Under the pieces are notes generated by a model that did not search any database, had not been told where the DNA came from, and saw nothing but the letters and a program-made list of their open reading frames with translations. A stretch of 41,613 nucleotides of DNA, from positions 1 to 41,613 of the IMG/VR virus record IMGVR_UViG_3300036846_000521, one strand, 5' to 3'. The translations under genes and the position numbers were made by a program. Shown here in pieces: positions 312 to 41,613 of the stretch. Position 1 is the first letter of the stretch; each line of letters opens with the position of its first letter. This stretch comes from a virus.

Positions 312-992
312 TCAGACTACCGTGATCGGCATATACGGCGCCAGGATGTCGCAGTAGCCCTGCGGGATCTCGGTCGCGACGTTGATCGACGCCAGGTCGC
401 GCCCGAGGGTCGCGTAGTGTGCGACCAGGAGGCCGACGGCCTGGAGCAGCAGCGGCGCGGCGGTTGCCAGCGTCTCGGGATCCGGCCAGCCGGCGTCGAG
501 CGTGATAGCCCACGGCTGAAACGTGCGCAGGTTCGATGGCCACGAGCTCGTCGGGGTATTGAGCGCGATGCGGCCGCTCGCATAGTCGACGATGTAGGTC
601 GCCGGATTGATCGTCATCGTCTGCCCGAGGTTGTTGATCGCGTCGATGCCGACGATGTCCTGCAGCGGCATCGAGCCGGCCGGCAACGTCAGTACGTTTG
701 GCATCCAATCGAGATAGACGATCCGCGTCTGTAGGAGGAGCGAGACGCCGGTATCGCTTTCGACCTTCCCGCGCGCCGCGCGAATAAAACTCGTCATCAG
801 CGCGTCGCGCGGATCGCCCGCCGTCCAGGTCAGGTTGGCGCGGAGCTTCGCCTCGTCGAGCGTGAGCGGTTCCTCGGTGGGCGGCGCGTTGACGACCGAG
901 ACGGCGTGTAACGTCGTCGCCTGCTGGCTGCAGGCGTCGCGCCAGCACGGGTACCAATTCGACCAGCAGCCGCCCTCGAAGGTCACGCCCAT
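312..992 (-). CDS. Head-tail connector (gp6-like / phiE125 gp8-type)
   Basis: 226-aa ORF. The stretches PLTLDEAKLRANL, IVYLDW..LTLP, WPD and LLQAVGLLVAHYATLGRD fit the gp6-like connector pattern. It sits directly upstream of the head-closure gene. Confidence 0.7.
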   Translation of the reverse strand: MGVTFEGGCWSNWYPCWRDACSQQATTLHAVSVVNAPPTEEPLTLDEAKLRANLTWTAGDPRDALMTSFIRAARGKVESDTGVSLLLQTRIVYLDWMPNVLTLPAGSMPLQDIVGIDAINNLGQTMTINPATYIVDYASGRIALNTPTSSWPSNLRTFQPWAITLDAGWPDPETLATAAPLLLQAVGLLVAHYATLGRDLASINVATEIPQGYCDILAPYMPITVV

Positions 993-6426: not shown

Positions 6427-6724
6427 GCGCATCGCGTTGCCAGGCGGCGGGGTCGCGATCGTGTGCGGCGGCCATCGGCGCCGGCGGCCGCGCTGCGCGT
6501 GCGGCGCTCCGGCGACGCTCGAATGCGATGGGCAGGGCCCGCCGGCGCTCGAGCGGCGCGGCGCCGTCGTCGCCAAGCGCCGGCGCTCGTGCGACCAGCC
6601 GCTCTGCTCGCGCTGCGCCATCCACGTGCCGCCCGATCAGGACTACTGCCGCCGGCCCGCCTGCCGTGCCGCGGCCGCGGCCGCCGGTGCGCAACTGCGG
6701 CTATTCACCACTACGCGACGATGA
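6419..6724 (+). CDS. Cys-rich putative zinc-binding protein (101 aa)
   Basis: Multiple Cys pairs (VCGG..RCACG..LECDG..SCDQPLCSRCAIH..DYCRRPAC). Its 3' end converges on and overlaps the terL 3' end by 14 nt. Confidence 0.55.
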   Translation: MCERIALPGGGVAIVCGGHRRRRPRCACGAPATLECDGQGPPALERRGAVVAKRRRSCDQPLCSRCAIHVPPDQDYCRRPACRAAAAAAGAQLRLFTTTRR

Positions 6725-8378
6725 GATCGGGATCGTCGGCGACGTCGGGGGTATCGAGCGCGGCGAGCTTGCGCGCGATCAGCGTCGCGATCACCGGGTC
6801 GATGCGGCCGCGGCTGCGTTTCTTCGTCGGATAGATGTTGTCCTTGTTGTCCGTCTGCACGCGCACGTTGCTGACGGCCCAGGTCACGACCGGGTTGTCG
6901 CCGGCGTCGACGAGGCCGTCGAGCACGTCGGCCTCGAATTCTTTTGCCGGGCCGCTCATTTGCGCCATCGTTTGCGGGACCTCGAGGACCTCGAGGCCGT
7001 CGTCGGCGAGGTCCTTCACCAAGTTGCCGGCGTTCCACGGATCGATCCCGACCTGCCGCACGGTGAACCGTTCCCGCGCCTCAGTGACGATCGCGCGGAC
7101 GACGTCCTGGTCGATCCGGTTGCCGGGGTTCGTCCGCAGCACGCCGAGCGTTTTCCAGAGCCGATACGGCGCGCGGTCCCGGTGCGCGCGATCGTCGAGC
7201 GTATCCTCCGGCGTCAGGCACCAGCAGACGATCCGCCAGCGGCTCGAGGCCGGCGGCGCCGGCGGGAAGAGCGCCGTGACCGCGGTCAGGTCGATCTTCG
7301 AGCTCATATCGATGCCGAGGTAGCACTCGAGGCCGGCCAGGTCCTCGAGCGGCCAGATCGATTGCCCGCGGCGCCATCCCTCAATCGACAACCACGGCGC
7401 GATCGCGTTGACCCAGAGGTTCAGCCGTTTCTGCTTGAACGCGGCGGCCGCCGCCGGCATGAAGCGCGCCTTGTGCGCGAGCGCCTTGAGATCGTCAGGC
7501 TTCACCGACACGCCGTAATTCGGGTTCGCCTTTTTCCAGGTCTTGACGACGAACGGCGGATCGTCGTCGTCGGCGTGCGCGATGAACGCGAAGAAGGTTT
7601 CATCGGTGAGCACGCGCTCGAGCACCTGGCAGGCGTAGTGATGTTGATCGCCGCACGGCGTCAACGGGTCCGAGCCGGCCGTGGTGATCCAGAGCACGAC
7701 CGGCTGTCGCCGCGCGCCGGTCGCCGTCTCCATGACGTCGATCATCCCGCGATGCTTCATCGCGTGCGCCTCGTCGATGATCACGATCTGCGGGTTGAGG
7801 CCGTCGGTCGAATCGGAGTCCGCGCCGAGCGGCTCGAGCTTCGCGGCGACGCGCTCGTAATGGAGGTTCGCCATCAGCACGGTGATCCGCGAGCGCAGGC
7901 CACTGCTCTGCACGAGCCGTTTGCAATCGGCGAACACGATCTTCGCCTGCGCACGTTTCGTCGCGATCACGAACCCTTCGGCGCCGGGTTCCCCGTCGAA
8001 GAAGGTCGCGTAGAGCGCCACGATCGCGGCCTCGAGCGACTTGCCGTTCTTGCGCGGGATCTCCCAGTAGATCGTGCGGAAACGCCGGAGGCCCGTCTCG
8101 ACCTGCGTCCAGGCGAAGAGCGATCCGAGCCGGAAGCGCTGATGCGGCTGCAACGTGATCCGTTGTCCGGCCCATTCCCCCTTGTAGTGTTTCAGCTGTT
8201 CGGCGAATCGGAAGAACCGCTCGGCGCGCGCGAGCTCGAACCGATACGGGAAGCCTTTCGTCCCTTCCCGCGCGCGGTCGCGCAGATGGCGCGCGCAGGC
8301 CAGCCGGTGATACTTGCCGGCCGGGATGCGGCCGCTCGCGACGCCGCGTGCGTAGCGATCGATTTCGTTGACGGTCAT
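6711..8378 (-). CDS. terL: Terminase large subunit
   Basis: 555 aa. Walker A-like IPRKNGKS, Walker B-like VIIDEAHAM and a C-terminal nuclease-like half. ATGA overlap with terS. Confidence 0.95.
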   Translation of the reverse strand: MTVNEIDRYARGVASGRIPAGKYHRLACARHLRDRAREGTKGFPYRFELARAERFFRFAEQLKHYKGEWAGQRITLQPHQRFRLGSLFAWTQVETGLRRFRTIYWEIPRKNGKSLEAAIVALYATFFDGEPGAEGFVIATKRAQAKIVFADCKRLVQSSGLRSRITVLMANLHYERVAAKLEPLGADSDSTDGLNPQIVIIDEAHAMKHRGMIDVMETATGARRQPVVLWITTAGSDPLTPCGDQHHYACQVLERVLTDETFFAFIAHADDDDPPFVVKTWKKANPNYGVSVKPDDLKALAHKARFMPAAAAAFKQKRLNLWVNAIAPWLSIEGWRRGQSIWPLEDLAGLECYLGIDMSSKIDLTAVTALFPPAPPASSRWRIVCWCLTPEDTLDDRAHRDRAPYRLWKTLGVLRTNPGNRIDQDVVRAIVTEARERFTVRQVGIDPWNAGNLVKDLADDGLEVLEVPQTMAQMSGPAKEFEADVLDGLVDAGDNPVVTWAVSNVRVQTDNKDNIYPTKKRSRGRIDPVIATLIARKLAALDTPDVADDPDLIVA

Positions 8379-8878
8379 TGCGGCCGCGAGCTCGGCGACG
8401 GCGGCATCGGCAGATCGAATTCGGCGAACGCGTCATCGCCCGGCGCAATCGGCGCGGTCTTGATCCGCGCGCGGCTCGACGGCGTGAGGCCGAGCTCCGG
8501 CCAGAGCCGATTGCACGCGGCGAGCGCTTTCGTCGCGACGGGCAGATACGGGTTCGCCATCGGATACCCGGTTTTGGTTTGGATGACGAGCCCGAGTTTC
8601 GCAATTTCCGCCATCGCACTGAGGTAGCGGTCCCACTCGAGGCAGAGCGCCAGGAGCGCACTCCGGTCGCCGGCGGTGATCGCGGCCGCCTGCCGCAGGA
8701 GCGGCGCGAGCCGGTTCCATTCGGCGATCGCGTGCGGGTGATTCTTGAGCTCGGGCGGCGCCGCGTCGAAGTCGGCGCCGGCCGCGGGTAACTGCGGCTC
8801 GTCGGCGTTGACCGGGCGCTTCCCTGGATTGCCCTCGAGAAGCTTCTGAGCCGTGGGCTTAGGCTTCGGACCTCGCAT
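8375..8878 (-). CDS. terS: Terminase small subunit, P27 family-like
   Basis: 167 aa from an internal Met of ORF 8375..9397. MRGPKPKPTAQKLLEGNPGKRP... is the typical P27-type N-terminus. The longer ORF upstream is Arg-rich shadow. Confidence 0.85.
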   Translation of the reverse strand: MRGPKPKPTAQKLLEGNPGKRPVNADEPQLPAAGADFDAAPPELKNHPHAIAEWNRLAPLLRQAAAITAGDRSALLALCLEWDRYLSAMAEIAKLGLVIQTKTGYPMANPYLPVATKALAACNRLWPELGLTPSSRARIKTAPIAPGDDAFAEFDLPMPPSPSSRPQ

Positions 8879-10196
8879 GGTGACTCCGGCGCCGCCGGCC
8901 CGTCGCGGCCGCCGGCGTGCCGATCGGCGTCGGCCGCTCGCCGGTAAACGCCTGCCAGCGCTCGAGCGCGACCTGGACATAGATCGGATCGAGCTCGATC
9001 CCGTAGCAGGTCCGACGCATTTGTTCCGCGGCGATGATCGTCGTGCCGCTCCCGATGAACGGATCGTACGCGACGAGCGCCAGGTGATTGCGCATCGGCC
9101 GCGCCATGCACTCGACAGGTTTCTGCGTCGAGTGGCCGTGGCCGACGTCCTCCCGCGCCGGAATCCGCCACAGCGTCGACGCGATTTCCCACAGGGTTGT
9201 CTGCGCGCGGTCCTTCGTGCGGCCGGCGCTCGCGTGCCCGCGGACGCCGTACCAGCACGGCTCGTGTTGCCAGTGGTAGTCGCCGCGCGAGAGCACCAGG
9301 CGATCCTTCGCCCAGACGATCTGCGCGCGCAGCTCGAAGCCGGCGGCCTCGAGCGAGGCCTGTACCGTCGACGCCTTGAGGCCCGCGTGCCAGACATAGG
9401 CGAGTCGGCCGGGGAAGAGCGCGAATGCTTCCCGCCAATCGGCGCGATCGTCGTTCTGCACCTTGCCGAGTTTTTCGCGGTTGCGGTTGACGCCGGCTTT
9501 CGCGCGCCACGACGCGTCGTACTCGACGCCGTAGGGCGGATCGGTCACCAGGATCGTCGGCGGCTCGACGCCCTCGAGGAGCTTCGCAACGTCGGCCGCG
9601 CTCGTCGCGTCGCCGCAGAGCAGCCGGTGCCGGCCGAGCGCGAACAGATCGCCGCGTTGGATCGTCGTCGTCGCGCGCGGCGCCGGCGTCGCTTCCGGAT
9701 CGACGAGGCCCGGCTGCCGATCGCGGCGCGCGAAGATCGCGGCTTGCTCGGGTTCCGTCCAGAACGGCACGAGCTCGAGGCCGGCGGCGCGATCGCGCGC
9801 CAGTTGATCGACGTCCCATTCCGCGAGTTCGGCGACGCGGTTGTCGTAAATCGCGAGCGCGCGTTTCTTTTCCGGCGTCAGGCCGCGCCGGCGCACGGCG
9901 ACGATCTCGTCGTCGTCGGGTTCAACGACGCGAAGCTTCGTCAGCCCGACCTGCGTCGCCGCGGTCACGACGCCGTTGCCGGCGAGGACGTGATCGTTCT
10001 CGTCGATCACGATCGATCGCGCCGGCCCGACGTCGCGCAGCGAGGTCGCGAGCATCTCGAGGTTCCGCTCCGGGTGCCGGCGCCGGTTCTCGGGGTCCGC
10101 GGTCAACTGCTCGAGCCGTGTCGCGGCGGCCGCCGGGGCCGGCGTCGGGGCCGGGGTTGGCCGAGGCCGTCGCTGACTCTGCCGTGTTGTTGCCAT
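8859..10196 (-). CDS. ParB-like nuclease domain fused to N6/N4 DNA methyltransferase (beta class)
   Basis: 445 aa. The N-terminus has a ParB/Srx-like stretch (LTADPENRRRHPERNLEMLATSLRDVGPARSIVID..LAGNG). TDPPYG (motif IV) precedes FIGSGTT (motif I). Confidence 0.88.
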   Translation of the reverse strand: MATTRQSQRRPRPTPAPTPAPAAAATRLEQLTADPENRRRHPERNLEMLATSLRDVGPARSIVIDENDHVLAGNGVVTAATQVGLTKLRVVEPDDDEIVAVRRRGLTPEKKRALAIYDNRVAELAEWDVDQLARDRAAGLELVPFWTEPEQAAIFARRDRQPGLVDPEATPAPRATTTIQRGDLFALGRHRLLCGDATSAADVAKLLEGVEPPTILVTDPPYGVEYDASWRAKAGVNRNREKLGKVQNDDRADWREAFALFPGRLAYVWHAGLKASTVQASLEAAGFELRAQIVWAKDRLVLSRGDYHWQHEPCWYGVRGHASAGRTKDRAQTTLWEIASTLWRIPAREDVGHGHSTQKPVECMARPMRNHLALVAYDPFIGSGTTIIAAEQMRRTCYGIELDPIYVQVALERWQAFTGERPTPIGTPAAATGRRRRSHHARSEA

Positions 10197-25864: not shown

Positions 25865-26140
25865 ATGTTTTCGACTCACGAACTGCGGCAGTTAGCTCGC
25901 GCCGGCGCGCTCGCGCAGGCCACACGGATCGTCACCGAATTCCCCGATATCCTTCCCGACTTGAATGCCCTGGCGGCCGGCCCGCGGCGCCGGGTCCTCG
26001 TCGCCGTCGACGAATCCGGCACGAACGGCGATCGCCCGCGGCGCACGATGTCGGCGGCCGCGCGCCAGCGGATCGGTCGCGCGCAGCGCGCCCGGTGGCG
26101 GAAGTTCAAGCAAGAGCACGCCGCGAAGGAGGCCCGGTGA
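25865..26140 (+). CDS. Hypothetical protein (91 aa)
   Basis: Internal Met28 of ORF 25784..26140 with GAGG upstream. Basic C-terminus MSAAARQRIGRAQRARWRKFKQEH. GTGA-coupled to int. Confidence 0.6.
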   Translation: MFSTHELRQLARAGALAQATRIVTEFPDILPDLNALAAGPRRRVLVAVDESGTNGDRPRRTMSAAARQRIGRAQRARWRKFKQEHAAKEAR

Positions 26141-27948
26141 ATCGCTCCTCGTTCCGCGTGATCGACGGCGCGGCCGCGCCGGGCCCCGGCACGATCGCCG
26201 CGATCTACGCGCGCAAATCGACCGAGCAGGACGTCGACGAAGAGGCGAAGTCCGTGACCCGGCAAGTCGAGCACGGGCGCGCGCTCGCCGCGCAGCATGG
26301 CTGGATCGTCCACGACGAGCTCGTGTTCGTCGACGACGGGATCTCCGGCGCCGAATTCACGCGGCGTCCCGGCTTCCTGCAGTTGATGGGATCGTTGAAG
26401 CCGGCGCCGCCGTTCCAGGTCCTGATCATGAGCGAGGAGTCGCGGCTCGGGCGCGAATCGATCCAGACGACCGGCGCCTTGTTCAAGTTGATCGCGGCCG
26501 GCGTGCGCGTGTTCTGTTATCTCGGCGGCGGGTACGAGCGCCGGCTGGAAACGGCGACCGAGAAGGCGATGTTCGCGCTGCAGTCGCACGCCGACGAAAT
26601 GGAGACCGAGCGGGCGCAGCAGCGCGCGTTCGACGCGGCGATCCGGAAGGCGCGCGCCGGCTATGCGACCGGCGGCCCGATCTACGGGTATGACCTCGAG
26701 CGCGTGTTCGCGCCGAACGGCGCGCGCTCGCATACCGAGTATCGGATCAACCGCGACCAGGCGGCCATCGTCCTGCAGATCTTCACGCGCGCGGCCGCCG
26801 GTTCCGGCTATCAGCGGATCGCGCGTGAGCTCAACGACGCCGGCGTGAAGCCGTCGCGCGGGCGCCAATGGTCGCCGAATTCGATCCGCGGGATTGCGAT
26901 GCGGACGATGTATCGCGGCCAGATGGAATGGAACAAGAGCAGCGGCGGGGTCAAATTCGGCACGGCGAAAAAGCGCGCGCGGCCCGCGAGCGATTGGATC
27001 ACCGTCCCGGTGCCGCAGCTGCGCCTCGTCGATGACGTCCTCTGGTATGCGGTACAGGAGCGCCGGCACCGGGTGACGGAGAAGCTCGTTGCCGCGAGCG
27101 CGAAGTTCGGGCGCGGCGGCCAGCGCCGCGACGGCGATTCGCGCTACCTGCTCACCGGCTTCGCGCGCTGCTCGGTCTGCGACGGCCCGGTCTGCGTCAT
27201 TTCGCGGCCGCTCAGCGAGCGCCGGATCGGGCCGGCCCGCGGGAAGCGCATCCGCGTGATCGACCACGCGGCCGGGCGCCTCGTCGCGTACGGGTGCCTG
27301 CGCTATCAGCGGCGCGGGGTCCGGTTCTGCACGAACGCCAACACGGTGCCCGTCGATCTTGTCGAGGCCGCGGTCCTCGAGGCGCTCGCCGCGGTCCTCG
27401 TGAAGAGCGCGCGGCCGAAGCGCATCCTGTCGCTCGTGCGGGAGGAGCGGGCCGGCAGCGCGCCGAAGCTCGAGCGAATGCAGCGCGATCTCGCGCGGCT
27501 CGAGGCCGAGTGCCGGCGCGGGGCCGACGCGCTGCTCGCCGGCGGCAATCTGCCGATGCTGCTCGAGGCGCTTCGCGATCGTGAGGCGCGCGCCGGCATG
27601 CTCCGGTCGCAGCTGACGGCGGCCGCGAGCCGGTCGACCGGCGGGGTCGACGGCGCCGCGCTCGAGCGCCTAATCCTGGCCGAGCTCAAGTCGGCGCAGG
27701 CGGCGCTTACCGGGCGCGGCATGCCGGCGGCGCGCGAGTTCCTGAAGAAATGGCTGCGGGGGTCGATCGTCCTCACGCCGGTCGCGCATCCGACGCGGCG
27801 CGACGGGCGCGCGTTCGACTTCGCCGGCGTGCTCGATCTCCGGCCCTTCGGCGGCGCCGTCGCGGCGTTCCCTCACTCCGGCGTATCCCCCACGGGTTCC
27901 GCCGATATGTGGGGGGCATCGTTCCGGGGCCTCGTGCGGGCCGCCTAG
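26137..27948 (+). CDS. int: Large serine recombinase (phage integrase type)
   Basis: 603 aa from GTG 26137 (AGGAGG upstream). Resolvase-type N-domain AIYARKSTEQD, recombinase domain (GGPIYGYD), Cys zinc ribbon (CSVCDGPVC...C...C) and a long coiled coil. Confidence 0.93.
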   Translation: MNRSSFRVIDGAAAPGPGTIAAIYARKSTEQDVDEEAKSVTRQVEHGRALAAQHGWIVHDELVFVDDGISGAEFTRRPGFLQLMGSLKPAPPFQVLIMSEESRLGRESIQTTGALFKLIAAGVRVFCYLGGGYERRLETATEKAMFALQSHADEMETERAQQRAFDAAIRKARAGYATGGPIYGYDLERVFAPNGARSHTEYRINRDQAAIVLQIFTRAAAGSGYQRIARELNDAGVKPSRGRQWSPNSIRGIAMRTMYRGQMEWNKSSGGVKFGTAKKRARPASDWITVPVPQLRLVDDVLWYAVQERRHRVTEKLVAASAKFGRGGQRRDGDSRYLLTGFARCSVCDGPVCVISRPLSERRIGPARGKRIRVIDHAAGRLVAYGCLRYQRRGVRFCTNANTVPVDLVEAAVLEALAAVLVKSARPKRILSLVREERAGSAPKLERMQRDLARLEAECRRGADALLAGGNLPMLLEALRDREARAGMLRSQLTAAASRSTGGVDGAALERLILAELKSAQAALTGRGMPAAREFLKKWLRGSIVLTPVAHPTRRDGRAFDFAGVLDLRPFGGAVAAFPHSGVSPTGSADMWGASFRGLVRAA

Positions 27949-34341: not shown

Positions 34342-36732
34342 TCAGCCGAGGAGCACGCGGCCGTTCGTGACCGTGCTGGCGATCGCCTTGCTCACCGTCG
34401 TTTCGAGTGCGTGCGCCGAGCTCGGGTCGAAGACGCCCGAGACGAGGACCTGCGTATGGAGCGTGATGCCGCCGGCGGCGCCGGTCGCGGGCCCGGCCGC
34501 GCGCGCCGCCGCGCTGAGCATGGCCGCGGCGCCCGACGCCGACACCGGCGGCGCCGTGAGCACGATCGGCGCCGCGGCGGCCGTCGTCGTCGGGGTCGTG
34601 CCTGCGCCGCCGCCGAAGCCGGCGACGGCCGGCCCGCGTGCGGACGCACTCCATTGCGAGAGATCAATGGTCGCGCCGCGTTTTTGCGCGCGCAGGATGT
34701 CGACGGCGTTCTGCAGGGAGAAGCCTTGCTGCAGCAGGCCGCGAATCTGATCCTTCGACAGATCCGGCGGCGGGGTATACGTGTCGAAGTTCGCCGCGGT
34801 GATCTCGCTCGACGCCGAGACGCCCTTCAGTTTTTCCTGCGCCGTGATCTGATCATCGATGGCCTTCGTGGTTTGCTCCGTCGCGGCCTGCGCTTTCCCC
34901 TGACTGGCGGCTTCCGCCTGGCCGGCGGCCGTCGCGGCCCAGGCGGCCTGGTGGTACTTGTCGACGAGCTTGTCGTACTCGGCGCGGCTGATCTCGGAGT
35001 TCGAGCGCGCCGCGAGCATCGTGTTATAGGCGAGGTCGCGCGCATCGTTGAGCGCGGCCTGCGAATGCGTCCGGATCTCCTGCCAGTCGGTGCCGACCTT
35101 GTCGGCCAACTCCGCGTAGTGACCCTCAATCGCTCGGGTCGTCGCGGCATCATCGGCCTCGAGTTGCGCGAGCGCTTCCTGTGAGTCGGCGTGCTGCTGA
35201 ATCAGCGCGTCCTTCGCGGCTTTCGTCCGCGCGTGCAGCGCGTCGAGCTCGGCTTGCTTGCGGTCCTCGAGATCGGCTTTCGCGATGTCGGTATCCGTGC
35301 CGGTGCGTTGGATCTCGTCGCGTTTGGCGTCGCGCGTGAGCTTGTCGACTTCCGCCTTGTTGGCCGCCGTCGACGCCGTCAGTTGCTTCGTCGCCGCGTC
35401 GGCCGCGCGCACTTCCTCGGTGTAGCGTTTGAATTGATCGGCGGTGATCTTCACGGCGGCGGCATTCTGCTCGTTGAGTTGCCCCATCGCGCGGAGCTCC
35501 TCGAGCGCGCGGACCTGGTAGGGTTCGAGGGCCTTCACGCCGTCGATGCGCAATTTGGCCAGATAGTTTTCGGCGACCTGTTCGTTGGAGAGCTCGTCGC
35601 CGTAGGTTTTCGTCTCGGTGGTCAGATCCGCCTGGTGCTTGGCGGCCGCCTCGAGCTCGAGGTTCATGACGTGCATGCGATCGGCGAGTGGCAGACTGAG
35701 CAGCGTCGCGCCGGCATCCTTCATCCCGGCGGTGAACAGTTTCCACCACGAGACGCCTTGTTCCGTCGCCTTGCGCACGCTCTCGAGCGCCAGGACGATG
35801 CCGCCCTCGAATTGCGTTTTGACGCTGTCCCACGTTTTGCCGGCGCGATCGACGGCATCGGCGTAGTCCTTGAGGGCCCGCACTTCGTCCTCGGTCGGTT
35901 GCTTCAACCGAGACGCGGCATCGATCGCTTTCTCGGCGTCCTCGGCAAACCCGCCGAGCGCCGAGCCCATTTTCTTGCCCCAGATTTCGGCGGCCGCCGT
36001 ATCGCGCATTTCGCCGTGCAGTTTGCCGAGCGCACTCTCGATATCGAGGAACAGTTCCTTGCCGTGTTTGCCGCGGACGTCCTCGAGCGAGAGCCCGACT
36101 TCGTGCAGGCCGCGCGCGACCGACTCGTCGCCGCCGGCGATGCCGCTCGAGACGCGGAAGAGCGCTTTGGCGAGCTCGTCGTTCTCGAGGCCATAATCCT
36201 GCGTCGCCGCGGTCAGGGTCTGTAGATCGCCGATGCTGATCTGCGTATCGTTCGACAGGCGCACGAGCGCTTGTTCGGCCTTGCCGAGGTTCTCGGCGAA
36301 GTCGAGCGCGGCGATGCCGATGCCGATGAGGCCGCCGCCGATCGCCATGTCCGCGATCTTGTCGGTGACGCCGGCGAACGTGAAGAGCTCGGCGTTGACC
36401 GGCTTGAGCTCGTTGGCGATTTTTTGCAGGTTGGCCGGGACCTCGACGCCCATCGCGCGGAGCTTCGCCGCGGCCTCGGTCGCTTTCGCGGCGACCTTCT
36501 GCAGTTCCTCCTCGGTGAGTTTCGAGGCGCCGCCGATCCGCTCGATCGCTTCGGCCGCGACGGTCGCTTGTTGAATTAGCTGGCGCCCGCTGAATTGATC
36601 GACCATCCGATTCAGCGAGGAACCGACCTTGTCGGCCCCCGACTGAAAGTCGGTGAGCTTCGCGTCGGCCTTGTCGACGGCCGCGTAGAACGAGAGGAAG
36701 TCGGCCTCGAATCGTCCAGTGATCGGTGCCAT
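34342..36732 (-). CDS. Tape measure protein
   Basis: 796 aa, long helical Ala/Lys/Glu/Gln-rich sequence. It lies immediately downstream of the G/GT chaperone pair. Confidence 0.9.
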   Translation of the reverse strand: MAPITGRFEADFLSFYAAVDKADAKLTDFQSGADKVGSSLNRMVDQFSGRQLIQQATVAAEAIERIGGASKLTEEELQKVAAKATEAAAKLRAMGVEVPANLQKIANELKPVNAELFTFAGVTDKIADMAIGGGLIGIGIAALDFAENLGKAEQALVRLSNDTQISIGDLQTLTAATQDYGLENDELAKALFRVSSGIAGGDESVARGLHEVGLSLEDVRGKHGKELFLDIESALGKLHGEMRDTAAAEIWGKKMGSALGGFAEDAEKAIDAASRLKQPTEDEVRALKDYADAVDRAGKTWDSVKTQFEGGIVLALESVRKATEQGVSWWKLFTAGMKDAGATLLSLPLADRMHVMNLELEAAAKHQADLTTETKTYGDELSNEQVAENYLAKLRIDGVKALEPYQVRALEELRAMGQLNEQNAAAVKITADQFKRYTEEVRAADAATKQLTASTAANKAEVDKLTRDAKRDEIQRTGTDTDIAKADLEDRKQAELDALHARTKAAKDALIQQHADSQEALAQLEADDAATTRAIEGHYAELADKVGTDWQEIRTHSQAALNDARDLAYNTMLAARSNSEISRAEYDKLVDKYHQAAWAATAAGQAEAASQGKAQAATEQTTKAIDDQITAQEKLKGVSASSEITAANFDTYTPPPDLSKDQIRGLLQQGFSLQNAVDILRAQKRGATIDLSQWSASARGPAVAGFGGGAGTTPTTTAAAAPIVLTAPPVSASGAAAMLSAAARAAGPATGAAGGITLHTQVLVSGVFDPSSAHALETTVSKAIASTVTNGRVLLG

Positions 36733-36746
36733 TGCGCTGCTCTCTT

Positions 36747-37285
36747 TTACGTGATCAACCAGTCATCGTCGTCGGCGCTCGGCGGCCGCGGCGCCGGCGG
36801 TCCCGCGGCTTCCGCGAGGATCTTCACGCAGATGTCGAAGACGTCGGCGTCGAGCTCGTCGACGTCGGCGTAGGCGAACCCCCATCGTTCACAGATGGCG
36901 AGCCGGATCCGGACGTCCCGTTCCCAGGCCGGGTTTTTTTTTCTTCCGCGGCCGCCGCGATCATCGCGTCATCGTGCTGGTCGATGATGCGCTCGATCTC
37001 TTTCGCGTCCATCGGTTCGAGGACGTCGAGCGTGGCGCGGATCTCGTCGCGCGACTTCCCGCGAATCACGAGCGGCGTGTTCGTCGCCTCGTCTTTCACC
37101 GTCCAATCGAGCAGATAGGCGAGGACGATCGCCTGGCCGCTGAGCAGGCCGTCGCCGTGGCCGTCAGGCCCGCGCATCGCCTGGAGCATCGCGCGCCGCT
37201 CGCCGGCGGTGAGGCGTTTGCGCACGATGAGGGTTTCGCCGGTCGAGAGCGGCAACGTGATCGACTCGGGTCGGACGACGCGCAT
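36747..37285 (-). CDS. Tail assembly chaperone, -1 frameshifted long form (gpGT-like)
   Basis: After A_AAA_AAA, the -1 frame reads NPAWERDVRIRLAICERWGFAYADVDELDADVFDICVKILAEAAGPPAPRPPSADDDDWLIT. It stops at TAA 36747-36749, 14 nt before the tape-measure ATG. Confidence 0.7.
36824..37285 (-). CDS. Tail assembly chaperone, short form (gpG-like, 153 aa)
   Basis: Internal Met71 of ORF 36824..37495 with an AAGGGAG RBS. After the A9 run, the zero frame continues only as low-complexity TRPGNGTSGSGSP... Confidence 0.8.
   Translation of the reverse strand: MRVVRPESITLPLSTGETLIVRKRLTAGERRAMLQAMRGPDGHGDGLLSGQAIVLAYLLDWTVKDEATNTPLVIRGKSRDEIRATLDVLEPMDAKEIERIIDQHDDAMIAAAAEEKKTRPGNGTSGSGSPSVNDGGSPTPTSTSSTPTSSTSA
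36934..36942 (-). promoter_or_regulatory. Slippery A9 run (GAA GAA AAA AAA ACC) for -1 programmed frameshift
   Basis: Nine consecutive T on the plus strand. Frame positions were verified against the ORF-track coordinates. Confidence 0.7.
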
Positions 37286-37307
37286 GGGGCAAGCTCCCTT
37301 TCTACTG

Positions 37308-37730
37308 TCAGCCGGAAACGGTGAGACCGTGCGCGCGTAGCATCGCGCGCAGTTCGTCGTACATGCGCGCCCGCCAGCGGATGACGCGCGGGACGAACGT
37401 GTGATGCGCGATGTCAATCCGGCCGCGGTTGGCGCCTTTCTTCGTGGTGCGCACGGCCGTGCCGACCTCATAGACGTTCGCCTCGAGGCCGGCATTGTTG
37501 ATGACCACGGCGCCGGCGAAGCCTTTCCCCGAATTCGGCATGACCACGACCTCGAGCCCGTCCTGCAGCGTGCCGTCCTTCCGCGGATAGGCGCCGCGGA
37601 TGTCGTCCTCGGCGCCGTGCGCGTTGCTGAGCACGATCCGTTCGGCGTCGCCGGTCAGCGCGTCGGGCAGCGCGCGCAGCTGCTGGCGGAGCTCGGCGAG
37701 GCCATCGAAGACCAATCGGTTGTTGCTCAT
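37308..37730 (-). CDS. HK97 gp10-family neck/tail-completion protein
   Basis: 140 aa. FDGLAELRQQLRALPDAL...GAYPRKDGTLQDGL...GAVVINNAGLEANVYEVGT fits the gp10-family pattern. It is unusually placed downstream of the tail tube gene. Confidence 0.65.
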   Translation of the reverse strand: MSNNRLVFDGLAELRQQLRALPDALTGDAERIVLSNAHGAEDDIRGAYPRKDGTLQDGLEVVVMPNSGKGFAGAVVINNAGLEANVYEVGTAVRTTKKGANRGRIDIAHHTFVPRVIRWRARMYDELRAMLRAHGLTVSG

Positions 37731-37737
37731 GGCGGTT

Positions 37738-38055
37738 CTATCCTTCCGGCGGCCCGAGCGCCGCGCGGAGCACGCCGCGCTCGAGCGTGGGTTCGTCGAG
37801 CACCGGGAAACACCAGAGGCCGCCCACGCGGGCGGCCGTGAAGTAGAGCGGGCGTTGCCGAATCTGGAACGAGTCCGCGCGGATGACGCGCGCCGCGAGC
37901 CGGAGGCCCTTCGTCGGCGTGACGAGCTTCACGCCTGGCTGTCGGACCTGCGGCGGCACGACGCGGAGAATCGCCCACGGGCCGAGGCTCGCGATCTCGC
38001 GATAGCCCCACAGAATCGATCCGGCTGCGCCGCGGACGCGCAGCGATTCGATCAC
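37738..38055 (-). CDS. Hypothetical protein (105 aa, GTG start)
   Basis: GTGA overlap with the tail-tube gene stop. No family recognised. Confidence 0.55.
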   Translation of the reverse strand: MIESLRVRGAAGSILWGYREIASLGPWAILRVVPPQVRQPGVKLVTPTKGLRLAARVIRADSFQIRQRPLYFTAARVGGLWCFPVLDEPTLERGVLRAALGPPEG

Positions 38056-38471
38056 GGCAGCAGGTTCAGCGACCAGTTGCCGGCAGCGACGAAGTTCCCG
38101 GTGACCTTCGGCGCGCCCTCGACCATCGTGTCGATGTCGACGTCGAGATACGCGAGCCCTTCGAAGGCGCCGGCGTCGGGGGTCGGGTCCGTCGTGTTGG
38201 GCACGAGCCGCAGCAGGCCCGGCGTCGCCGCGTCGACGGCCTTGAACAGCGTCAGTTCGTCCGAGTCCCAGAAGCCGCCCACGGTGCCCGCGACGTCCTT
38301 CAGGCCGTTGACATAGACCTTGTTGCTATTGCCGAAGCAGGTCACGTTGATCTTGTCGGTCTTTTGCGACATTTTCCACGTGTTCAGCGACGTGACGATC
38401 ACCGGCGTGGCCGGCGACGGCACCGGCGGCTCGTTATAGAGCACCTGCCCGTAGCGTCCTGTCAGAATCAT
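38052..38471 (-). CDS. Major tail (tube) protein
   Basis: 139 aa. ...TWKMSQKTDKINVTCFGNSNKVYVNGLKDVAGTVGGFWDSDE... fits the siphovirus tail-tube pattern. ATGA overlap with the upstream gene. Confidence 0.7.
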   Translation of the reverse strand: MILTGRYGQVLYNEPPVPSPATPVIVTSLNTWKMSQKTDKINVTCFGNSNKVYVNGLKDVAGTVGGFWDSDELTLFKAVDAATPGLLRLVPNTTDPTPDAGAFEGLAYLDVDIDTMVEGAPKVTGNFVAAGNWSLNLLP

Positions 38472-38983
38472 GATCGTGCTCCCTTCGTTGCCCGTTGGGG
38501 TCGGTCCCGCGTGAGTCCCATTGGATCGATGCTCGCCTGCAGCCGATAATAGCCGCCGCGTTGCTGCCAGCGATCGCCGCGCTCAGGGTCCGTCTCGTTG
38601 AGCCGCAGCCGCAGTTCGCGCTCGAGCGCCATCAGCGCGAAGCCGGCGATCGCGAGCGTGCCGTCCTCGAGGAGCTCGTCGATCCGCGCCGCGGCCGCGC
38701 GCGCCGGTCCCGGCATGCGCACGACGGCCTTGACTAAGTAGAGCGTGTCCTCCCAGGCGCGCCGGCCGAACACGGCGACGTCGTCGTGCATCGCCAGCGA
38801 GACGATGCCGTACGCGGTCACGTCGGGCGGCGCGAGGTCGAACCAAATCCCGCCGGGCAGCAGCGCCGTCAGCACCGAGTCCTGTCGGAGCTTCGCGAGC
38901 AGCGCGGCATCGATGCGCGCGCTGTCGGGCCAGGTCGGGCGCGGCGCCCGGCGTTCGACGAGCGATCGGAGATCGAGCAGCAT
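38468..38983 (-). CDS. Neck/tail-terminator-like protein, paralogue 2 (DUF3168-like pattern)
   Basis: 171 aa. By hand alignment it is roughly 40-45 percent identical over ~130 aa to 40980..41429. Shared stretches include APP..T.Y, FGRRA.EDT.Y.V.AV, RIDELLED and RGG.Y. Confidence 0.55.
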   Translation of the reverse strand: MLLDLRSLVERRAPRPTWPDSARIDAALLAKLRQDSVLTALLPGGIWFDLAPPDVTAYGIVSLAMHDDVAVFGRRAWEDTLYLVKAVVRMPGPARAAAARIDELLEDGTLAIAGFALMALERELRLRLNETDPERGDRWQQRGGYYRLQASIDPMGLTRDRPQRATKGARS

Positions 38984-38986
38984 CGG

Positions 38987-40474
38987 TCACGGCGCGATGA
39001 ATCCGGAGACGAGGACGGTGATCGCTTGCGTGCCGGCGAGCGCGCAGAGCGCCGCGGCCGTCGGCAGGCGGATCGGGGTCTTGAACGTCAGGAGCACCGG
39101 GTGCGGATCGTCGCTCGTCGCGACGCCGACGTGGCGGCCGCTCCCTGGCGGCAGAATCGGCGCCGTGCCGACGCTGCAATTCGCGCCGGTGCCGGCGAGC
39201 AGCTGCACGGCGCCGGCCGTCGTCGACGTCGAGACCGCGAAGATATCCGTGACGTAGATCGCCAGGCCCGCCGCCGGCGCGCTGCAGCCGGTGAGAACCG
39301 TCGCCGTCGTCGTAATCCCGTCGCCGGTGCACGCGACGCGGTTGGGATGATCCTGCCGCACGAAGGCCGCGCCGTAGGCGTCGACGCTCAGCTGCGCATA
39401 GTCGCCATCGGCGTTCGTGGTTTGCGTCGCCGTGTCCTTGCGCACGTTGAGCGCGAAGACGCCGACGTCGCCGGAGGCGTGCGCGCCGTCCTCGTTCTTG
39501 CCGAGTTGATTGCCGTTGGTGCCGGGCAGCACGTTGGCGAGCGAGGCGACGTGCGTGGTCACGCCGATTTCGAACGCGGATCCGGTCGACATCGGGCCGG
39601 AGATGAGCGGCAGCGGCAGAAACTTATTGCTTTGGTAAATGCCCCCGACGAGGTAACCGGGCGATGCCGCACTGAGCGGAGTGCCGCTCGGGTACAGGTG
39701 GGCGATCGGCACCGGCGCGGTCGTCGTCGCCTCGACGAAAATTGTTGCGGTCCCAGCGGTGTAGTTCGACGGGGAGATCCAGACGTTTGTCATCCCCGGT
39801 TGGAGTTGCGCCATGAACGAGAGCGTTTCCGTGCTCCCATTGAAGTGCGCCGCCTCCGTCCGGTACTGGTCGAACGGCCCGATGTTCGAGCCGGTCTGCA
39901 GCAGGACCGCGGGAATCGTGAGGCCGCCGGCGTTTTGCTGCCACAGCCGGAGGTCCGCATTCAGGGTCGTGGTCTGCACTTGGAAATAGACAAATCCGGC
40001 GCCGGTGACGTCGAGCGGCGCGAAGTTCCCGAAGCCGTTGATCGTGTCGGACGTCATCCGCATCGGTGGAAACGGGGAGGCGACCGGGCCGCCGGCGCCG
40101 GCCGTCAACTGCACGCTCGGCGTGCCCGAGGCGTAGCTCGAGAAGCGCACCCGGATCGTCGTCGCGGCGCCGATCGGCACGGTGTAGATGCCGGCGCGGG
40201 TGATCGTCGAGAGCCGCGTGCCGCCATTGTCATAGACCGCGACGTCGGTCAGCGCGGCCGCGCTCGCACCGATCGAGGCTTGCAGCGCCCCGAAGAAGGT
40301 GCCGGTGACGGTGACGGTCGCTTGCGACTTCCCGGTGCCGCCGGTCAGCGTCACGCAGCCGGTGCCGGGGCACGTCGTCGACGAGAGCGTGGCCGTCGTC
40401 GTCGGGTCCTGTGCGGCCGCGGGCGCCGCCAGCAGGCCGAGCAGGGCGGCCGCGCCGATCAGGCGGCGGATCAT
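38987..40474 (-). CDS. Beta-rich Thr/Gly/Ala-rich protein with N-terminal Sec-type signal peptide (495 aa)
   Basis: Internal Met72 of ORF 38987..40687, with an ATGA overlap onto the upstream stop. MIRRLIGAAALLGLLAAPAAA-QDP has n-, h- and AxA regions. The upstream part of the long ORF is Arg-rich shadow. Confidence 0.7.
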   Translation of the reverse strand: MIRRLIGAAALLGLLAAPAAAQDPTTTATLSSTTCPGTGCVTLTGGTGKSQATVTVTGTFFGALQASIGASAAALTDVAVYDNGGTRLSTITRAGIYTVPIGAATTIRVRFSSYASGTPSVQLTAGAGGPVASPFPPMRMTSDTINGFGNFAPLDVTGAGFVYFQVQTTTLNADLRLWQQNAGGLTIPAVLLQTGSNIGPFDQYRTEAAHFNGSTETLSFMAQLQPGMTNVWISPSNYTAGTATIFVEATTTAPVPIAHLYPSGTPLSAASPGYLVGGIYQSNKFLPLPLISGPMSTGSAFEIGVTTHVASLANVLPGTNGNQLGKNEDGAHASGDVGVFALNVRKDTATQTTNADGDYAQLSVDAYGAAFVRQDHPNRVACTGDGITTTATVLTGCSAPAAGLAIYVTDIFAVSTSTTAGAVQLLAGTGANCSVGTAPILPPGSGRHVGVATSDDPHPVLLTFKTPIRLPTAAALCALAGTQAITVLVSGFIAP

Positions 40475-40980
40475 TGCGTCCCTCGACTCTGCGCGTTGAC
40501 GCAGCCGGCGCCGTTCGGCGCGCGCAGGAGGAGGCCGCCGGCGACCGTCAGCCCGCCGAACGGGACCACGCGCAGTTCGTGCGGCTCGAGCGGCTGGCCG
40601 CCGTAGCTGCCGCCGCCGGCGTCGGTGCACTCGATCGGTTGCACCTGGTCGGTGAGGTTGGCGAGCAGCAACGTCGCCACGGCGCAATTGGCCGCCGGCG
40701 TCACCAGCTGCGCCGTCGCCGTCAGGCCGACCAGGCCGGAGTCGAACGGCACGCCTGGCGCCGCGCCGGCCTCGACGATCCGCACGACCAGGCCGTAGTC
40801 GTCGGGCGCCGGCGCGGCGTTGCGTACCGTCGCGCGGGCGCTTCCGTCGGCCGGATCGCCGAGCGCGATCACTTGGCGGTTGACCGCGCCGAGGCCGCCG
40901 TCGACGAGCACGTTGTCGATCTCATAGCCGCCGCCGGCCGGCGCGACCTCGACGACGCTCGGCGCAATCGGGCCGGCCAT
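40471..40980 (-). CDS. Hypothetical beta-rich protein (169 aa)
   Basis: TGATG coupling to the upstream gene. It shares a weak VR(N/K)...DDYGLVV-type motif with the 495-aa protein. Confidence 0.65.
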   Translation of the reverse strand: MAGPIAPSVVEVAPAGGGYEIDNVLVDGGLGAVNRQVIALGDPADGSARATVRNAAPAPDDYGLVVRIVEAGAAPGVPFDSGLVGLTATAQLVTPAANCAVATLLLANLTDQVQPIECTDAGGGSYGGQPLEPHELRVVPFGGLTVAGGLLLRAPNGAGCVNAQSRGTQ

Positions 40981-41429
40981 CAGCGGCGCGCTCCCGCCGG
41001 CGCCGTCGCCATGAGGACGTGGTAGATGCCGCCGCGATGCTGCCAGAGGAGCGAGCCCGGCGTTTCGTTGTCGGGTAGTGTTTCGCGAACGCGGCGCGCG
41101 CGGTGCATCGTGGCCCAGACGAACCCGTCGACCGTGAGCGGCGAATCCTCGAGGAGCTCGTCGATGCGCAGCGCCGCGGCCGGCATATCCGGGTGCGCCG
41201 TCGAGAGGCCGACGGCCGTGACGCGATAGAACGTGTCCTCTTGCGCGCGCCGGCCGAATTCGGCGACGTCGACCTGACTCTCGATCGCCACGAGGACGTA
41301 GCGGGTCGCGCCGGGCGGCGCCACGGCGTAATAGACACCGTTCGGCATCAGCGAGAGCAGCGTCGCGTCGGCCGCCAGGCGCGCGATCAGCGCGTTGTCG
41401 ATCGCCGACGAATCCGCGGGCGCCGTCAC
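40980..41429 (-). CDS. Neck/tail-terminator-like protein, paralogue 1 (DUF3168-like pattern)
   Basis: 149 aa from GTG 41429 (Val35 of ORF 40980..41531), with a GTGA overlap onto the head-closure stop. Sequence: IDNALIARLAADATLLSLMPNGVYYAVAPPGATRYVLV... Confidence 0.55.
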   Translation of the reverse strand: MTAPADSSAIDNALIARLAADATLLSLMPNGVYYAVAPPGATRYVLVAIESQVDVAEFGRRAQEDTFYRVTAVGLSTAHPDMPAAALRIDELLEDSPLTVDGFVWATMHRARRVRETLPDNETPGSLLWQHRGGIYHVLMATAPAGARR

Positions 41430-41613
41430 GCGACGATCTCCTGGCAGACCGCGATCGTCTCGACGCCGAGCTCCTCGGGCGAGGCGACGCCGGTGATCTG
41501 CAGCGTGCGGCCGTTGAAGAGGATCTGGCACTTCGTGGTCAGCTGCGGGTGATACGGCATCGTGACCACGTGGGTCGCTTGCGCCAGGACCGACGTGCTC
41601 ATCGGCGCGAGCC
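41426..41613 (-). CDS. Head-closure protein, 3' part (continuation of 308..1 across the circular junction)
   Basis: ...MSTSVLAQATHVVTMPYHPQLTTKCQILFNGRTLQITGVASPEELGVETIAVCQEIVA, stop TGA at 41426-41428. Nt 41487-41613 duplicate 1-127. Confidence 0.8.
   Translation of the reverse strand, partial: LAPMSTSVLAQATHVVTMPYHPQLTTKCQILFNGRTLQITGVASPEELGVETIAVCQEIVA
41487..41613. repeat. Terminal overlap, right copy (identical to 1..127)
   Basis: Same 127-nt string as 1..127; the window ends exactly at the end of the match. Confidence 0.97.

Follow-up and report, generated by a model that had tools for sequence, protein, structure and literature searches.

Two non-sister tail-terminator genes flank a foreign gene pair in the rearranged neck module of a metagenomic phage genome

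Few genes of tailed phages keep their order as strictly as those that join the head to the tail, and annotation pipelines depend on it. Here we describe a phage genome in which it is broken. The window, i.e., the whole stretch of DNA analysed, is the 41,613-nt IMG/VR record IMGVR_UViG_3300036846_000521 (GC about 69%). In its neck region two genes of the tail-terminator family, here called par1 and par2, enclose two further genes, g169 and g495, and the gp10-like tail-completion gene is found behind the tube gene. Read along the minus strand, the order is connector, head-closure, par1, g169, g495, par2, tube, g105, gp10-like, G/GT and tape measure. A previous sequence-only reading had called this neck order scrambled, and rightly so: the genes are present on the minus strand as it described them, and their order departs from that of the relatives.

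The first terminator copy, par1 (40980-41429, minus strand), codes for 149 aa and starts with a GTG codon that overlaps the head-closure stop codon (GTGA). It is followed by g169 (40471-40980), which encodes a two-module protein of 169 aa from an uncharacterised phage family, and by g495 (38987-40474), the product of which is modular, fibre-like and 495 aa long. The second copy, par2 (38468-38983), codes for 171 aa, being slightly extended at either terminus; it is immediately followed by the tube gene, the start codon of which it overlaps. The tube (major tail) gene itself (38052-38471, 139 aa) precedes g105 (37738-38055, 105 aa) and the gp10-like gene (37308-37730, 140 aa), all on the minus strand. 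The GC content at third codon positions (GC3) of all seven genes from par1 to the gp10-like gene is of the coding type (0.85-0.92), and the gene junctions either overlap (GTGA, TGATG, ATGA) or are a few bases apart, with a maximum of 22 nt before G.

On the head side, the region runs across the ends of the contig. Bases 1-127 are identical to 41487-41613, which indicates a circular (or terminally redundant) assembly with a real length of about 41,486 bp. It is because of this circularity and its 127-bp terminal overlap that the head-closure (stopper) gene is split over the contig ends (308..1/41613..41426, minus strand). Rebuilt over the junction it gives an ORF of 122 aa, which has a weak match to PF05521 (Phage_HCP) in the Logan gene call and is 30-61% identical among relatives. 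The connector/adaptor-like gene (312-992, minus strand), placed between the capsid genes and head-closure, is a 226-aa ORF the true start of which may lie later. It is 42-53% identical to its counterparts in the related loci L004, L103 and L056; the window copy has no Pfam match, and the counterpart in L001 matches Phage_connect_1 weakly. Thus, connector and head-closure do precede par1 in gene order, as had been proposed, but not by a linear upstream position on the contig.

Since this is a metagenomic contig, two family members could have ended up on it through a strain-level assembly chimera of two co-occurring related phages. This is extremely improbable. The Logan assembly of run SRR11835973 shows 0 mismatches in 11,306 nt over the neck region, including the contig-end junction, and the order is therefore not the product of one assembler. 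The longest exact repeat between the two terminator copies is 19 nt, far below the 127-nt overlap implied by the terminal repeat. Moreover, every junction is a clean translational coupling, and the displaced gp10-like gene would require yet another artefact, independent of the first.

The two terminator copies are 44% identical over 144 aa (BLASTP, E 1e-30), in agreement with the 40-45% previously obtained by hand alignment. Both match PF11367 (Tail_completion_gp17), par2 with E 6.8e-6 and 26.7 bits (cut-off 24.5) and par1 with E 3.2e-5 and 24.5 bits, exactly at the cut-off. The best match of the family profile in the PDB is the tail terminator of the Rhodobacter gene transfer agent RcGTA (6tba, E 0.005). 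An AlphaFold (AF2) model of par1 (pLDDT 93.4, pTM 0.88) has the same protein as its top Foldseek match (6tba_4A, E 7.6e-6, TM 0.63/0.69), followed by the monocin cap, Listeria antigen B, the Bxb1 and R4C neck proteins, lambda gpU and T5 p142. According to this model par1 has the terminator fold; par2, with its 44% identity to par1, would be expected to share it. Both by PF11367, and par1 also by fold, they resemble the known terminators RcGTA g8 (Rcc01690, PDB 6tba), SPP1 gp17 (PF11367), lambda gpU and T5 p142, and par2 stands before the tube gene as is usual. In contrast to these systems, the window carries two copies, where each of 169 related loci has one, par1 lies 2.5 kb from the tube gene, separated from it by g169, g495 and par2 and in the tail-completion slot, and both copies are found at the divergent edge of the family. 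One terminator homologue of another kind was seen on a JGI contig of 1.7 kb: P0016 (275 aa) continues at its C-terminus into a further domain of about 135 residues.

The tube gene is identified by its PHROG matches and its position. It matches PHROG 10528 (E 1.2e-7) and PHROG 9522 (E 4.7e-6), both 'major tail protein', and its relatives, 37-60% identical, occupy the same position ahead of g105, G/GT and the tape measure gene; the tube family profile found nothing significant in PDB or Pfam. The small g105 gene is without a Pfam or PHROG match. A g105-like gene is conserved after the tube gene throughout the lineage, at the same position in about 80 loci (28-49% identity, tblastn), and g105 is an ordinary conserved member of the module which lies outside the anomaly. 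Within its coding sequence (minus strand, 37818-37837), an 8-bp all-GC hairpin with a T-rich tail scores as terminator-like.

For the gp10-like gene, family and position have to be kept apart. The window copy matches PHROG 5 ('tail completion or Neck1', E 7.5e-5) and scores 15.8 bits against PF04883 (HK97-gp10_like), below the cut-off of 21.4. That family is matched by 13 of 27 aligned gp10-like orthologues, with a best E of 8.9e-10, and by its orthologues and PHROG 5 the gene is assigned to the tail completion family, along with HK97 gp10, lambda gpZ and SPP1 gp16.1. The usual place of a tail-completion gene is behind the head-completion gene and ahead of the terminator gene (PMC11784142). 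Unlike these, the 140-aa gene of the window comes after tube and g105, between g105 and G. Its family membership stands despite this odd position because the place in the gene order is customary for the family but does not define it biochemically. In none of the solved neck structures has the tail completion protein been found (PMC11784142). Relocation of the gene need not upset the physical stacking of the neck.

How unusual this order is can be judged from 169 related loci with a terminator homologue, all of them metagenomic, which were fetched by protein search with contig look-ups, by scans of metagenome and IMG/VR viral contigs, and by a scan of genome contigs. Loci, also those of other phage groups, are designated by L and a number. 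In every locus of at least 6 kb (about 100), tblastn of the window proteins gave one canonical order: head-closure, gp10-like, a single terminator, tube, g105-like, G and tape measure. The order previously taken as the expected one is thus uniform among relatives, and it is not that of the window. In every relative the gp10-like gene lies between head-closure and terminator, i.e., in the slot that par1 occupies in the window. A profile-HMM scan of all ORFs detected a terminator in 170 sources, with two terminators only in the window, and a gp10-like gene in 165 sources, never in two copies. Two terminators, the cargo genes g169 and g495, or a moved gp10-like gene were found in no relative among the roughly 170 loci. 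Cultured phages gave no help with synteny, since par2 had no tblastn match among them and the best capsid matches were less than 46% identical.

The presence of two family members 2 kb apart and in the same orientation had been explained by a duplication-mediated insertion, in which the terminator gene was tandemly duplicated in place, the copies diverged rapidly and the cargo entered between them. What had drawn attention were patches of DNA identity, and one such patch is real: the 19-mer CCTCGAGGAGCTCGTCGAT occurs exactly twice, at 38665-38683 in par2 and at 41147-41165 in par1 (0 expected), and is the longest exact repeat between the copies. It encodes, however, the family-invariant IDELLE motif; the same 19-mer is present in only 1 of 172 fetched loci. 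At shared residues 43 of 64 codons are identical, near the 35 expected from genome codon usage, and DNA identity is 60%. Because codon identity is so close to expectation, the patches are explained by the invariant RIDELLED motif together with a GC3 of about 90%.

The phylogenetic position of the copies is equally hard to reconcile with an in-place event. In 200 neighbour-joining bootstraps par1 and par2 were never sisters. Measured against 123 distinct outside terminators, the partner ranks 120th of 124 by distance from par1 and 115th from par2, and each copy is nearer to about 95% of the outside homologues than to the other. Furthermore, par2 and the L001 terminator have in common a VVRxxGP loop and a C-terminal DPxGLT tail, both of which par1 lacks, and no relative contains a young duplicate. 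The two copies are not young in-place duplicates. Both score low on the family HMM, as accelerated evolution after a duplication would give, but with the evidence above an in-place origin appears quite improbable. On paper, simple duplication-and-deletion paths from the canonical to the present order all require at least three block copies, and we propose no single-event model for the gp10-like move.

The part of the earlier proposal which holds is the foreign nature of the inserted genes. The pair of g169 and g495 is resident in a separate group of phages. In all seven contexts examined (the window, L009/L010, L177, L213, L214, L215 and L216), the gene directly behind a g169-like gene codes for a protein with a signal peptide. 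In five of the six outside contexts (L009/L010, L177, L213, L215 and L216) the pair follows a portal gene, called Phage_portal_3 in L009 and L216, and a small PHROG 3758-like gene ('virion structural protein'), and these belong to one separate phage group. The PHROG assignment of the small gene was tested in L009 and L177, and in the others it was made by BLAST or position. The string of portal, small gene, g169-like and fibre-like genes extends over L009 6811-9833, L177 707-3722, L213 600-2859, L215 1290-3362 and L216 6585-8865. In L214, a 1.5-kb contig, the upstream genes are cut off (163-1454), and only a fragment resembling the small gene precedes the pair. It follows that the g169/g495 cassette is of foreign origin and was acquired by the phage of the window. 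In L216, a second small signal-peptide gene (8865-9332) comes directly after the string. A hidden relationship between the small PHROG 3758 protein (about 138 aa) and the terminators, which would make par1 part of a three-gene mobile module, was considered and discarded (hhalign probability about 1%). No second copy of a g495 or g169 domain was found in the tail fibre genes of the window; in IMG/VR, one single-protein scan found no further copies of the cassette, and two alignments held no usable conserved stretch.

Neither g169 and g495 nor their homologues match a Pfam or PHROG family. Among 1.8 billion proteins, g169 has 77 representatives, mostly stand-alone proteins of about 160 aa; its N-module (residues 5-75) is also the N-terminus of fibre-like proteins of 300-770 aa, and it has no signal peptide. 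Two long matches from the representative search, P0078 and P0089, were set aside as ankyrin or low-complexity artefacts. g495 is homologous in modules to P0061, P0063, P0071 and P0073, its N-terminal region is common to P0061, P0063, P0066 and P0067, and a 55-residue motif is repeated in other proteins. Its C-terminal beta-sandwich domain ends in SGFIAP (SG[FY]IAP in the family) and was found on 39 IMG/VR contigs of 35-69% GC. The AF2 model is confident for residues 375-495 only (pLDDT 49 outside the C-terminal domain), and the fold matches of this domain (jelly-roll, TNF-like lectin and fibre-tip folds) are weak and generic, with E values of at least 2e-3. With a poor model elsewhere and matches of this kind, no function was drawn from the fold.

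The cargo does not behave as an autonomous unit. Its junctions overlap or are 4 nt apart, and a scan limited to sigma-70-type promoters found 0 promoter-like sites in 36500-41613, with no terminator-like site flanking g169 and g495. With tight junctions and neither promoter nor terminator of their own, the two genes would be read with the late operon. Morons and other accessory genes in phage late operons are familiar, e.g., gp15 of lambdoid HK97 or the glycosyltransferases in the structural operons of mycobacteriophages. The window and its relatives resemble these in having non-core genes between structural genes at recurrent junctions, glycosyltransferases and methyltransferases in the relatives; the window differs in that its cargo is translationally coupled, lacks a promoter and terminator of its own, and is accompanied by a second copy of one of the core neck genes.

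The insertion had been seen as striking the most conserved part of a siphovirus genome. This is not the case in the present lineage, since the neck module contains two insertion hot spots. The terminator/tube junction carries inserts of 0.5-3.4 kb in 25 of 104 distinct junctions: Glyco_trans_1_2 and family-2 glycosyltransferases, SAM methyltransferases, a 166-aa family, and fibre-like proteins of 470-940 aa that share their N-terminus. In the head-closure/terminator interval, large inserts within the same size range are located between head-closure and the gp10-like gene in 6 of 97 cases, including L004, L042, L070, L082 and L084; the one in L004 encodes an 828-aa pectate-lyase/K1-lyase-like protein. 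The cargo of the window comes directly after the terminator gene par1, which is the commoner of the two hot spots.

Glycosyltransferase genes lie between terminator and tube in L020, L022, L042, L043, L064, L076, L101, L106, L120, L142, L146, L147 and L153, several of which also have a SAM-methyltransferase gene. In the five loci tested, including L022, L043, L101 and L142, Pfam confirmed Glyco_trans_1_2, Glycos_transf_2 and Methyltransf_11. This gene content suggests that the soil phages of this lineage have glycosylated virions. At either hot spot there are also genes for fibre- or depolymerase-like proteins of 250-940 aa (L004 2635-5121, L029 5091-7904, L042 596-2005, L070 4470-6506, L084 4366-5832, L087 575-1330, L091 7126-8634 and L162 8459-9946). 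They share the N-terminal motif ..PA[LF]F[TQ]S..D.TK.GP..WN.., and one has pectate-lyase/K1-lyase domains. In the relatives, these proteins may serve as genuine neck or side fibres.

If the copies did not arise from each other in place, where did they come from? The closest relatives of the genes on either side point in different directions. The head-closure gene is closest to those of L098 and L099 (61%, rank 1-2 of 131), and the terminators of these two loci rank 10-11 of 169 against par1 and 148-149 of 169 against par2. On the tail side, L004 has the closest tape measure protein (310 vs 159 bits for the next locus) and the closest 1024-aa distal tail protein (417 vs 68 bits), and its terminator ranks 70 of 169 against par1 and 7 of 169 against par2. 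L001, which ranks 2-4 for g105, has a terminator which is 169th of 169, i.e., last, against par1 and 1-3 of 169 against par2. The closest par2 homologues are accordingly those of L001 and L004, and the commonest bootstrap partner is L098 for par1 (101/200) and L001 for par2 (91/200). Each copy thus resembles the terminator of the closest relative on its own side. This is consistent with the joining of a head-side to a tail-side parent without loss of either terminator. We consider this two-parent pattern moderately supported.

The explanation that we favour, with a probability of roughly one half, is that the region is a healed mosaic recombination joint between two diverged lineages of one phage family that retained both terminators. 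The head-side parent would have contributed the segment through head-closure, its terminator par1 and an accessory insert at the usual hot spot after the terminator gene. The tail-side parent would have supplied everything from its own terminator onward, namely par2, tube, g105, the chaperones, the tape measure and the distal tail. A staggered crossover between the two would have left both terminator genes in place. The accessory insert would be the pair g169 and g495, which has its native place behind the portal gene in phages of an unrelated group. The gp10-like gene would have lost its slot between head-closure and terminator and come to lie between g105 and G, in a separate or accompanying event that left no footprint. 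Afterwards, the junctions would have been tidied into translational coupling, with all genes expressed from the late operon. At present, par2 would terminate the tube, par1 would be a second copy that keeps its fold, and g495 would be Sec-exported and disulfide-bonded rather than part of the neck.

Several observations weigh against this explanation. The family tree is nearly star-like, with members that are all about 50% identical, and bootstrap values for the partners of par1 and par2 are only about 50%. Across all loci, identity to par1 is not correlated with identity to the window's head-closure protein (rho 0.04), and the second- and third-closest head-closure relatives, L063 and L037, have terminators about 45% identical to par1. 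Since neither gives support, the head-side assignment of par1 rests mainly on L098 and L099. The tube gene does not track L004 (rank 60), and the low scores of both terminators on the family HMM would also fit an old duplication with specialisation. The gp10-like move is not explained by a staggered crossover and needs an extra event. No relative shows an intermediate, be it a terminator followed by g169 and g495 or a gp10-like gene after g105, and for this reason the order of events is not reconstructable. The 19 extra N-terminal residues of par2 were considered as a vestige of the 3' end of a gp10-like gene that once lay upstream, an idea dropped in view of 3/13 identities by eye.

The two copies also differ in how far they conform to their family. 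The outside family has 57 columns with at least 80% conservation, of which par2 retains 50 and par1 45 (family median 53). The value of par1 is below the family 5th percentile, and several of its losses are non-conservative, among them those in the C-terminal E-D-R motif. On a family HMM made from 123 outside homologues, left-out members reach 175-230 bits, par1 174 and par2 150, which leaves room for specialisation of both. Identity to par2 across loci follows identity to the tube protein (Spearman 0.42, n=109), with weak linkage to g105 and G; identity to par1 has no such linkage with neighbouring genes. Because it keeps more of the conserved columns, overlaps the tube start codon and tracks tube identity, par2 is more likely to be the working tube terminator. 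We infer that par1 is a second copy which keeps the terminator fold under altered constraint. A sliding-window comparison with the family columns for complementary losses between the copies gave a weak and unconvincing pattern only.

Is par1 then used at all? It might be a non-functional passenger, an open but decaying relic of recombination in a phage which, apart from its expressed cargo, works like its relatives. The number of conserved positions kept, low for the family, the distance from the tube gene and the missing linkage to neighbouring genes would all be expected of such a relic. Yet the par1 ORF is intact with a GC3 of 0.89, it is precisely coupled to head-closure at its start and to g169 at its stop, and its fold prediction is very confident. 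Under packaging-size pressure useless phage DNA is lost quickly. We therefore regard the passenger status of par1 as improbable.

At the other extreme, both terminators could be stoichiometric virion components, either stacked in the order tube, par2, par1 and head-closure or mixed in one hexamer; such a neck would be adaptive and perhaps a platform for g169. A genuine neck with two related rings and extra appendage proteins had been the alternative offered by the sequence-only reading. Both genes are intact (GC3 0.85-0.89) and translationally coupled in the late operon, par1 is confidently modelled as a terminator fold, both copies have drifted unusually far from the family profile, as specialisation would bring about, and the gene order mirrors a possible physical order, with par1 next to head-closure and par2 next to the tube. 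Two-layer tail termination is established in myophages, where T4 uses gp3 and gp15 and P2 gpR and gpS; T4 gp15 is among the weaker fold matches of par1. The stacked rings of T4 gp3 and gp15 thus provide a precedent for two rings between the end of the tube and the head-closure ring. However, the T4 and P2 proteins are distinct families which serve tube and sheath, whereas par1 and par2 are paralogues of one family in a module without a sheath gene. With a double terminator in 1 of 170 sources one cannot speak of a conserved design, the two copies do not look like duplicates that arose within the lineage, and par1 has lost 12 of 57 conserved positions, several of them non-conservatively. On balance, a two-ring or mixed-ring neck is unlikely, and so is the role of g495 as an appendage, given its Sec-type signal peptide and four co-varying cysteines.

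The evidence for export of g495 comes from its N-terminus and its cysteines. Residues encoded by 40412-40474 (minus strand) form a predicted signal peptide, MIRRLIGAAALLGLLAAPAAA, followed by QDP, with two arginines, a hydrophobic core and an AAA-Q site. The same layout is present in P0061, P0063, P0066, P0067, L177, L213, L214 and L216, and by heuristic scoring it has the features of a type I Sec signal. In the family of the C-terminal domain, at least four cysteines occur in this domain in 21 of 24 forms with a signal peptide as opposed to 5 of 14 without one (Fisher p 0.0026), several of these five having uncertain starts; the forms without signal peptide mostly have none or one. As the signal peptide co-varies with four conserved cysteines, g495 is probably exported by the Sec pathway and disulfide-bonded, and is probably not a neck appendage. 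In this family (L173-L211, P0060-P0073), the signal-less forms start with MADN..IATD.I.G.HYQRVK and are mostly without cysteines.

Two known systems may be compared with an exported protein encoded in the neck module. The neck passage structure of lactococcal siphophages, like other optional neck or collar appendages, is an optional and variable set of neck-associated genes (PMC6669499). The likeness lies in the fibre- or pectate-lyase-like genes that some relatives of the window carry at their neck hot spots. For g495 itself, the signal peptide argues against cytoplasmic assembly onto the neck, the cysteines likewise argue for export, and no sequence or family link to the neck passage structure was seen. 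Exclusion lipoproteins of the T5 Llp, Cor and Ltp type are small exported proteins, expressed early or from a prophage, which act at the cell envelope. Export by a signal peptide makes them a possible analogy for g495, the C-terminal domain of which is also found in signal-less, virion-type fibre proteins. In contrast to them, g495 is a fibre-like non-lipoprotein of 495 aa in the late operon.

A more far-reaching possibility, speculative and very improbable, would combine the stacked rings with a split fibre. In this scheme g169, the N-module of which is the N-terminus of single-chain fibres elsewhere, would be the virion-bound anchor, and g495, exported and disulfide-bonded in the periplasm, would dock on virions or block receptors only at or after lysis. 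If true, this would amount to a siphophage neck with an extra ring and an assembly or decoy step outside the cytoplasm; we know of no example of either.

The remainder of the genome is best read as that of a temperate siphophage of about 41.5 kb, assembled as a circle from a soil-type metagenome. A large serine recombinase with Resolvase, Recombinase and Zn_ribbon_recom domains (26095-27948, plus strand) makes a temperate lifestyle probable. The late genes on the minus strand run across the contig ends from portal, protease, HK97-type capsid and a small Ig-like gene to connector and head-closure, and then into the neck region. Downstream of the gp10-like gene follows the tail assembly chaperone gene G (36824-37285, minus strand, 153 aa), which is 30-46% identical to the G genes of relatives. 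A simulated -1 slip on the A9 run at 36934-36942 yields the putative frameshift product GT of 179 aa (36746-37285, minus strand). The slip site is 38 codons from the G stop, which is unusually far, and GT ends just before the tape measure start. The tape measure gene (34342-36732, minus strand, 796 aa), assigned by position and composition, has its best relative in L004 (41% over 515 aa). Other genes encode the large terminase subunit (6711-8378), a DNA methylase and distal tail proteins with IPT/TIG domains. A clue to the host comes from L172 (JBDTMB010000189.1, 10.5 kb), the sole match among 185,579 species genomes, a phage-like contig binned with an acidobacterial (Vicinamibacterales) metagenome-assembled genome. 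Its identity to the window is 50% for portal, 64% for protease and 50% for head-closure, and it hints weakly at acidobacterial hosts for the whole phage family.

Taken as a whole, the finding is a variant of known phage mosaicism that is unique among the relatives sampled. Among 170 sources the neck order is broken in this one alone, and the relatives are numerous enough to show in what way. In this lineage accessory genes land repeatedly at two fixed neck junctions, and a recombination joint between lineages may keep the core ring gene of both parents. Two oddities stand out: the slot of the tail-completion gene holds a second gene with the terminator fold, and a fibre-like protein that is apparently exported is encoded, together with its partner, within virion operons. 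The rule that the gene after head-closure encodes the tail completion protein would mis-annotate par1. Moreover, an uncharacterised, conserved late-operon pair has come to light, which consists of a small two-module protein and a fibre-like protein with a signal peptide and cysteines, and the predicted export of the latter is odd for a gene embedded among virion genes. If both terminator copies are used, the phage would offer a natural test of how a terminator ring can be re-purposed.

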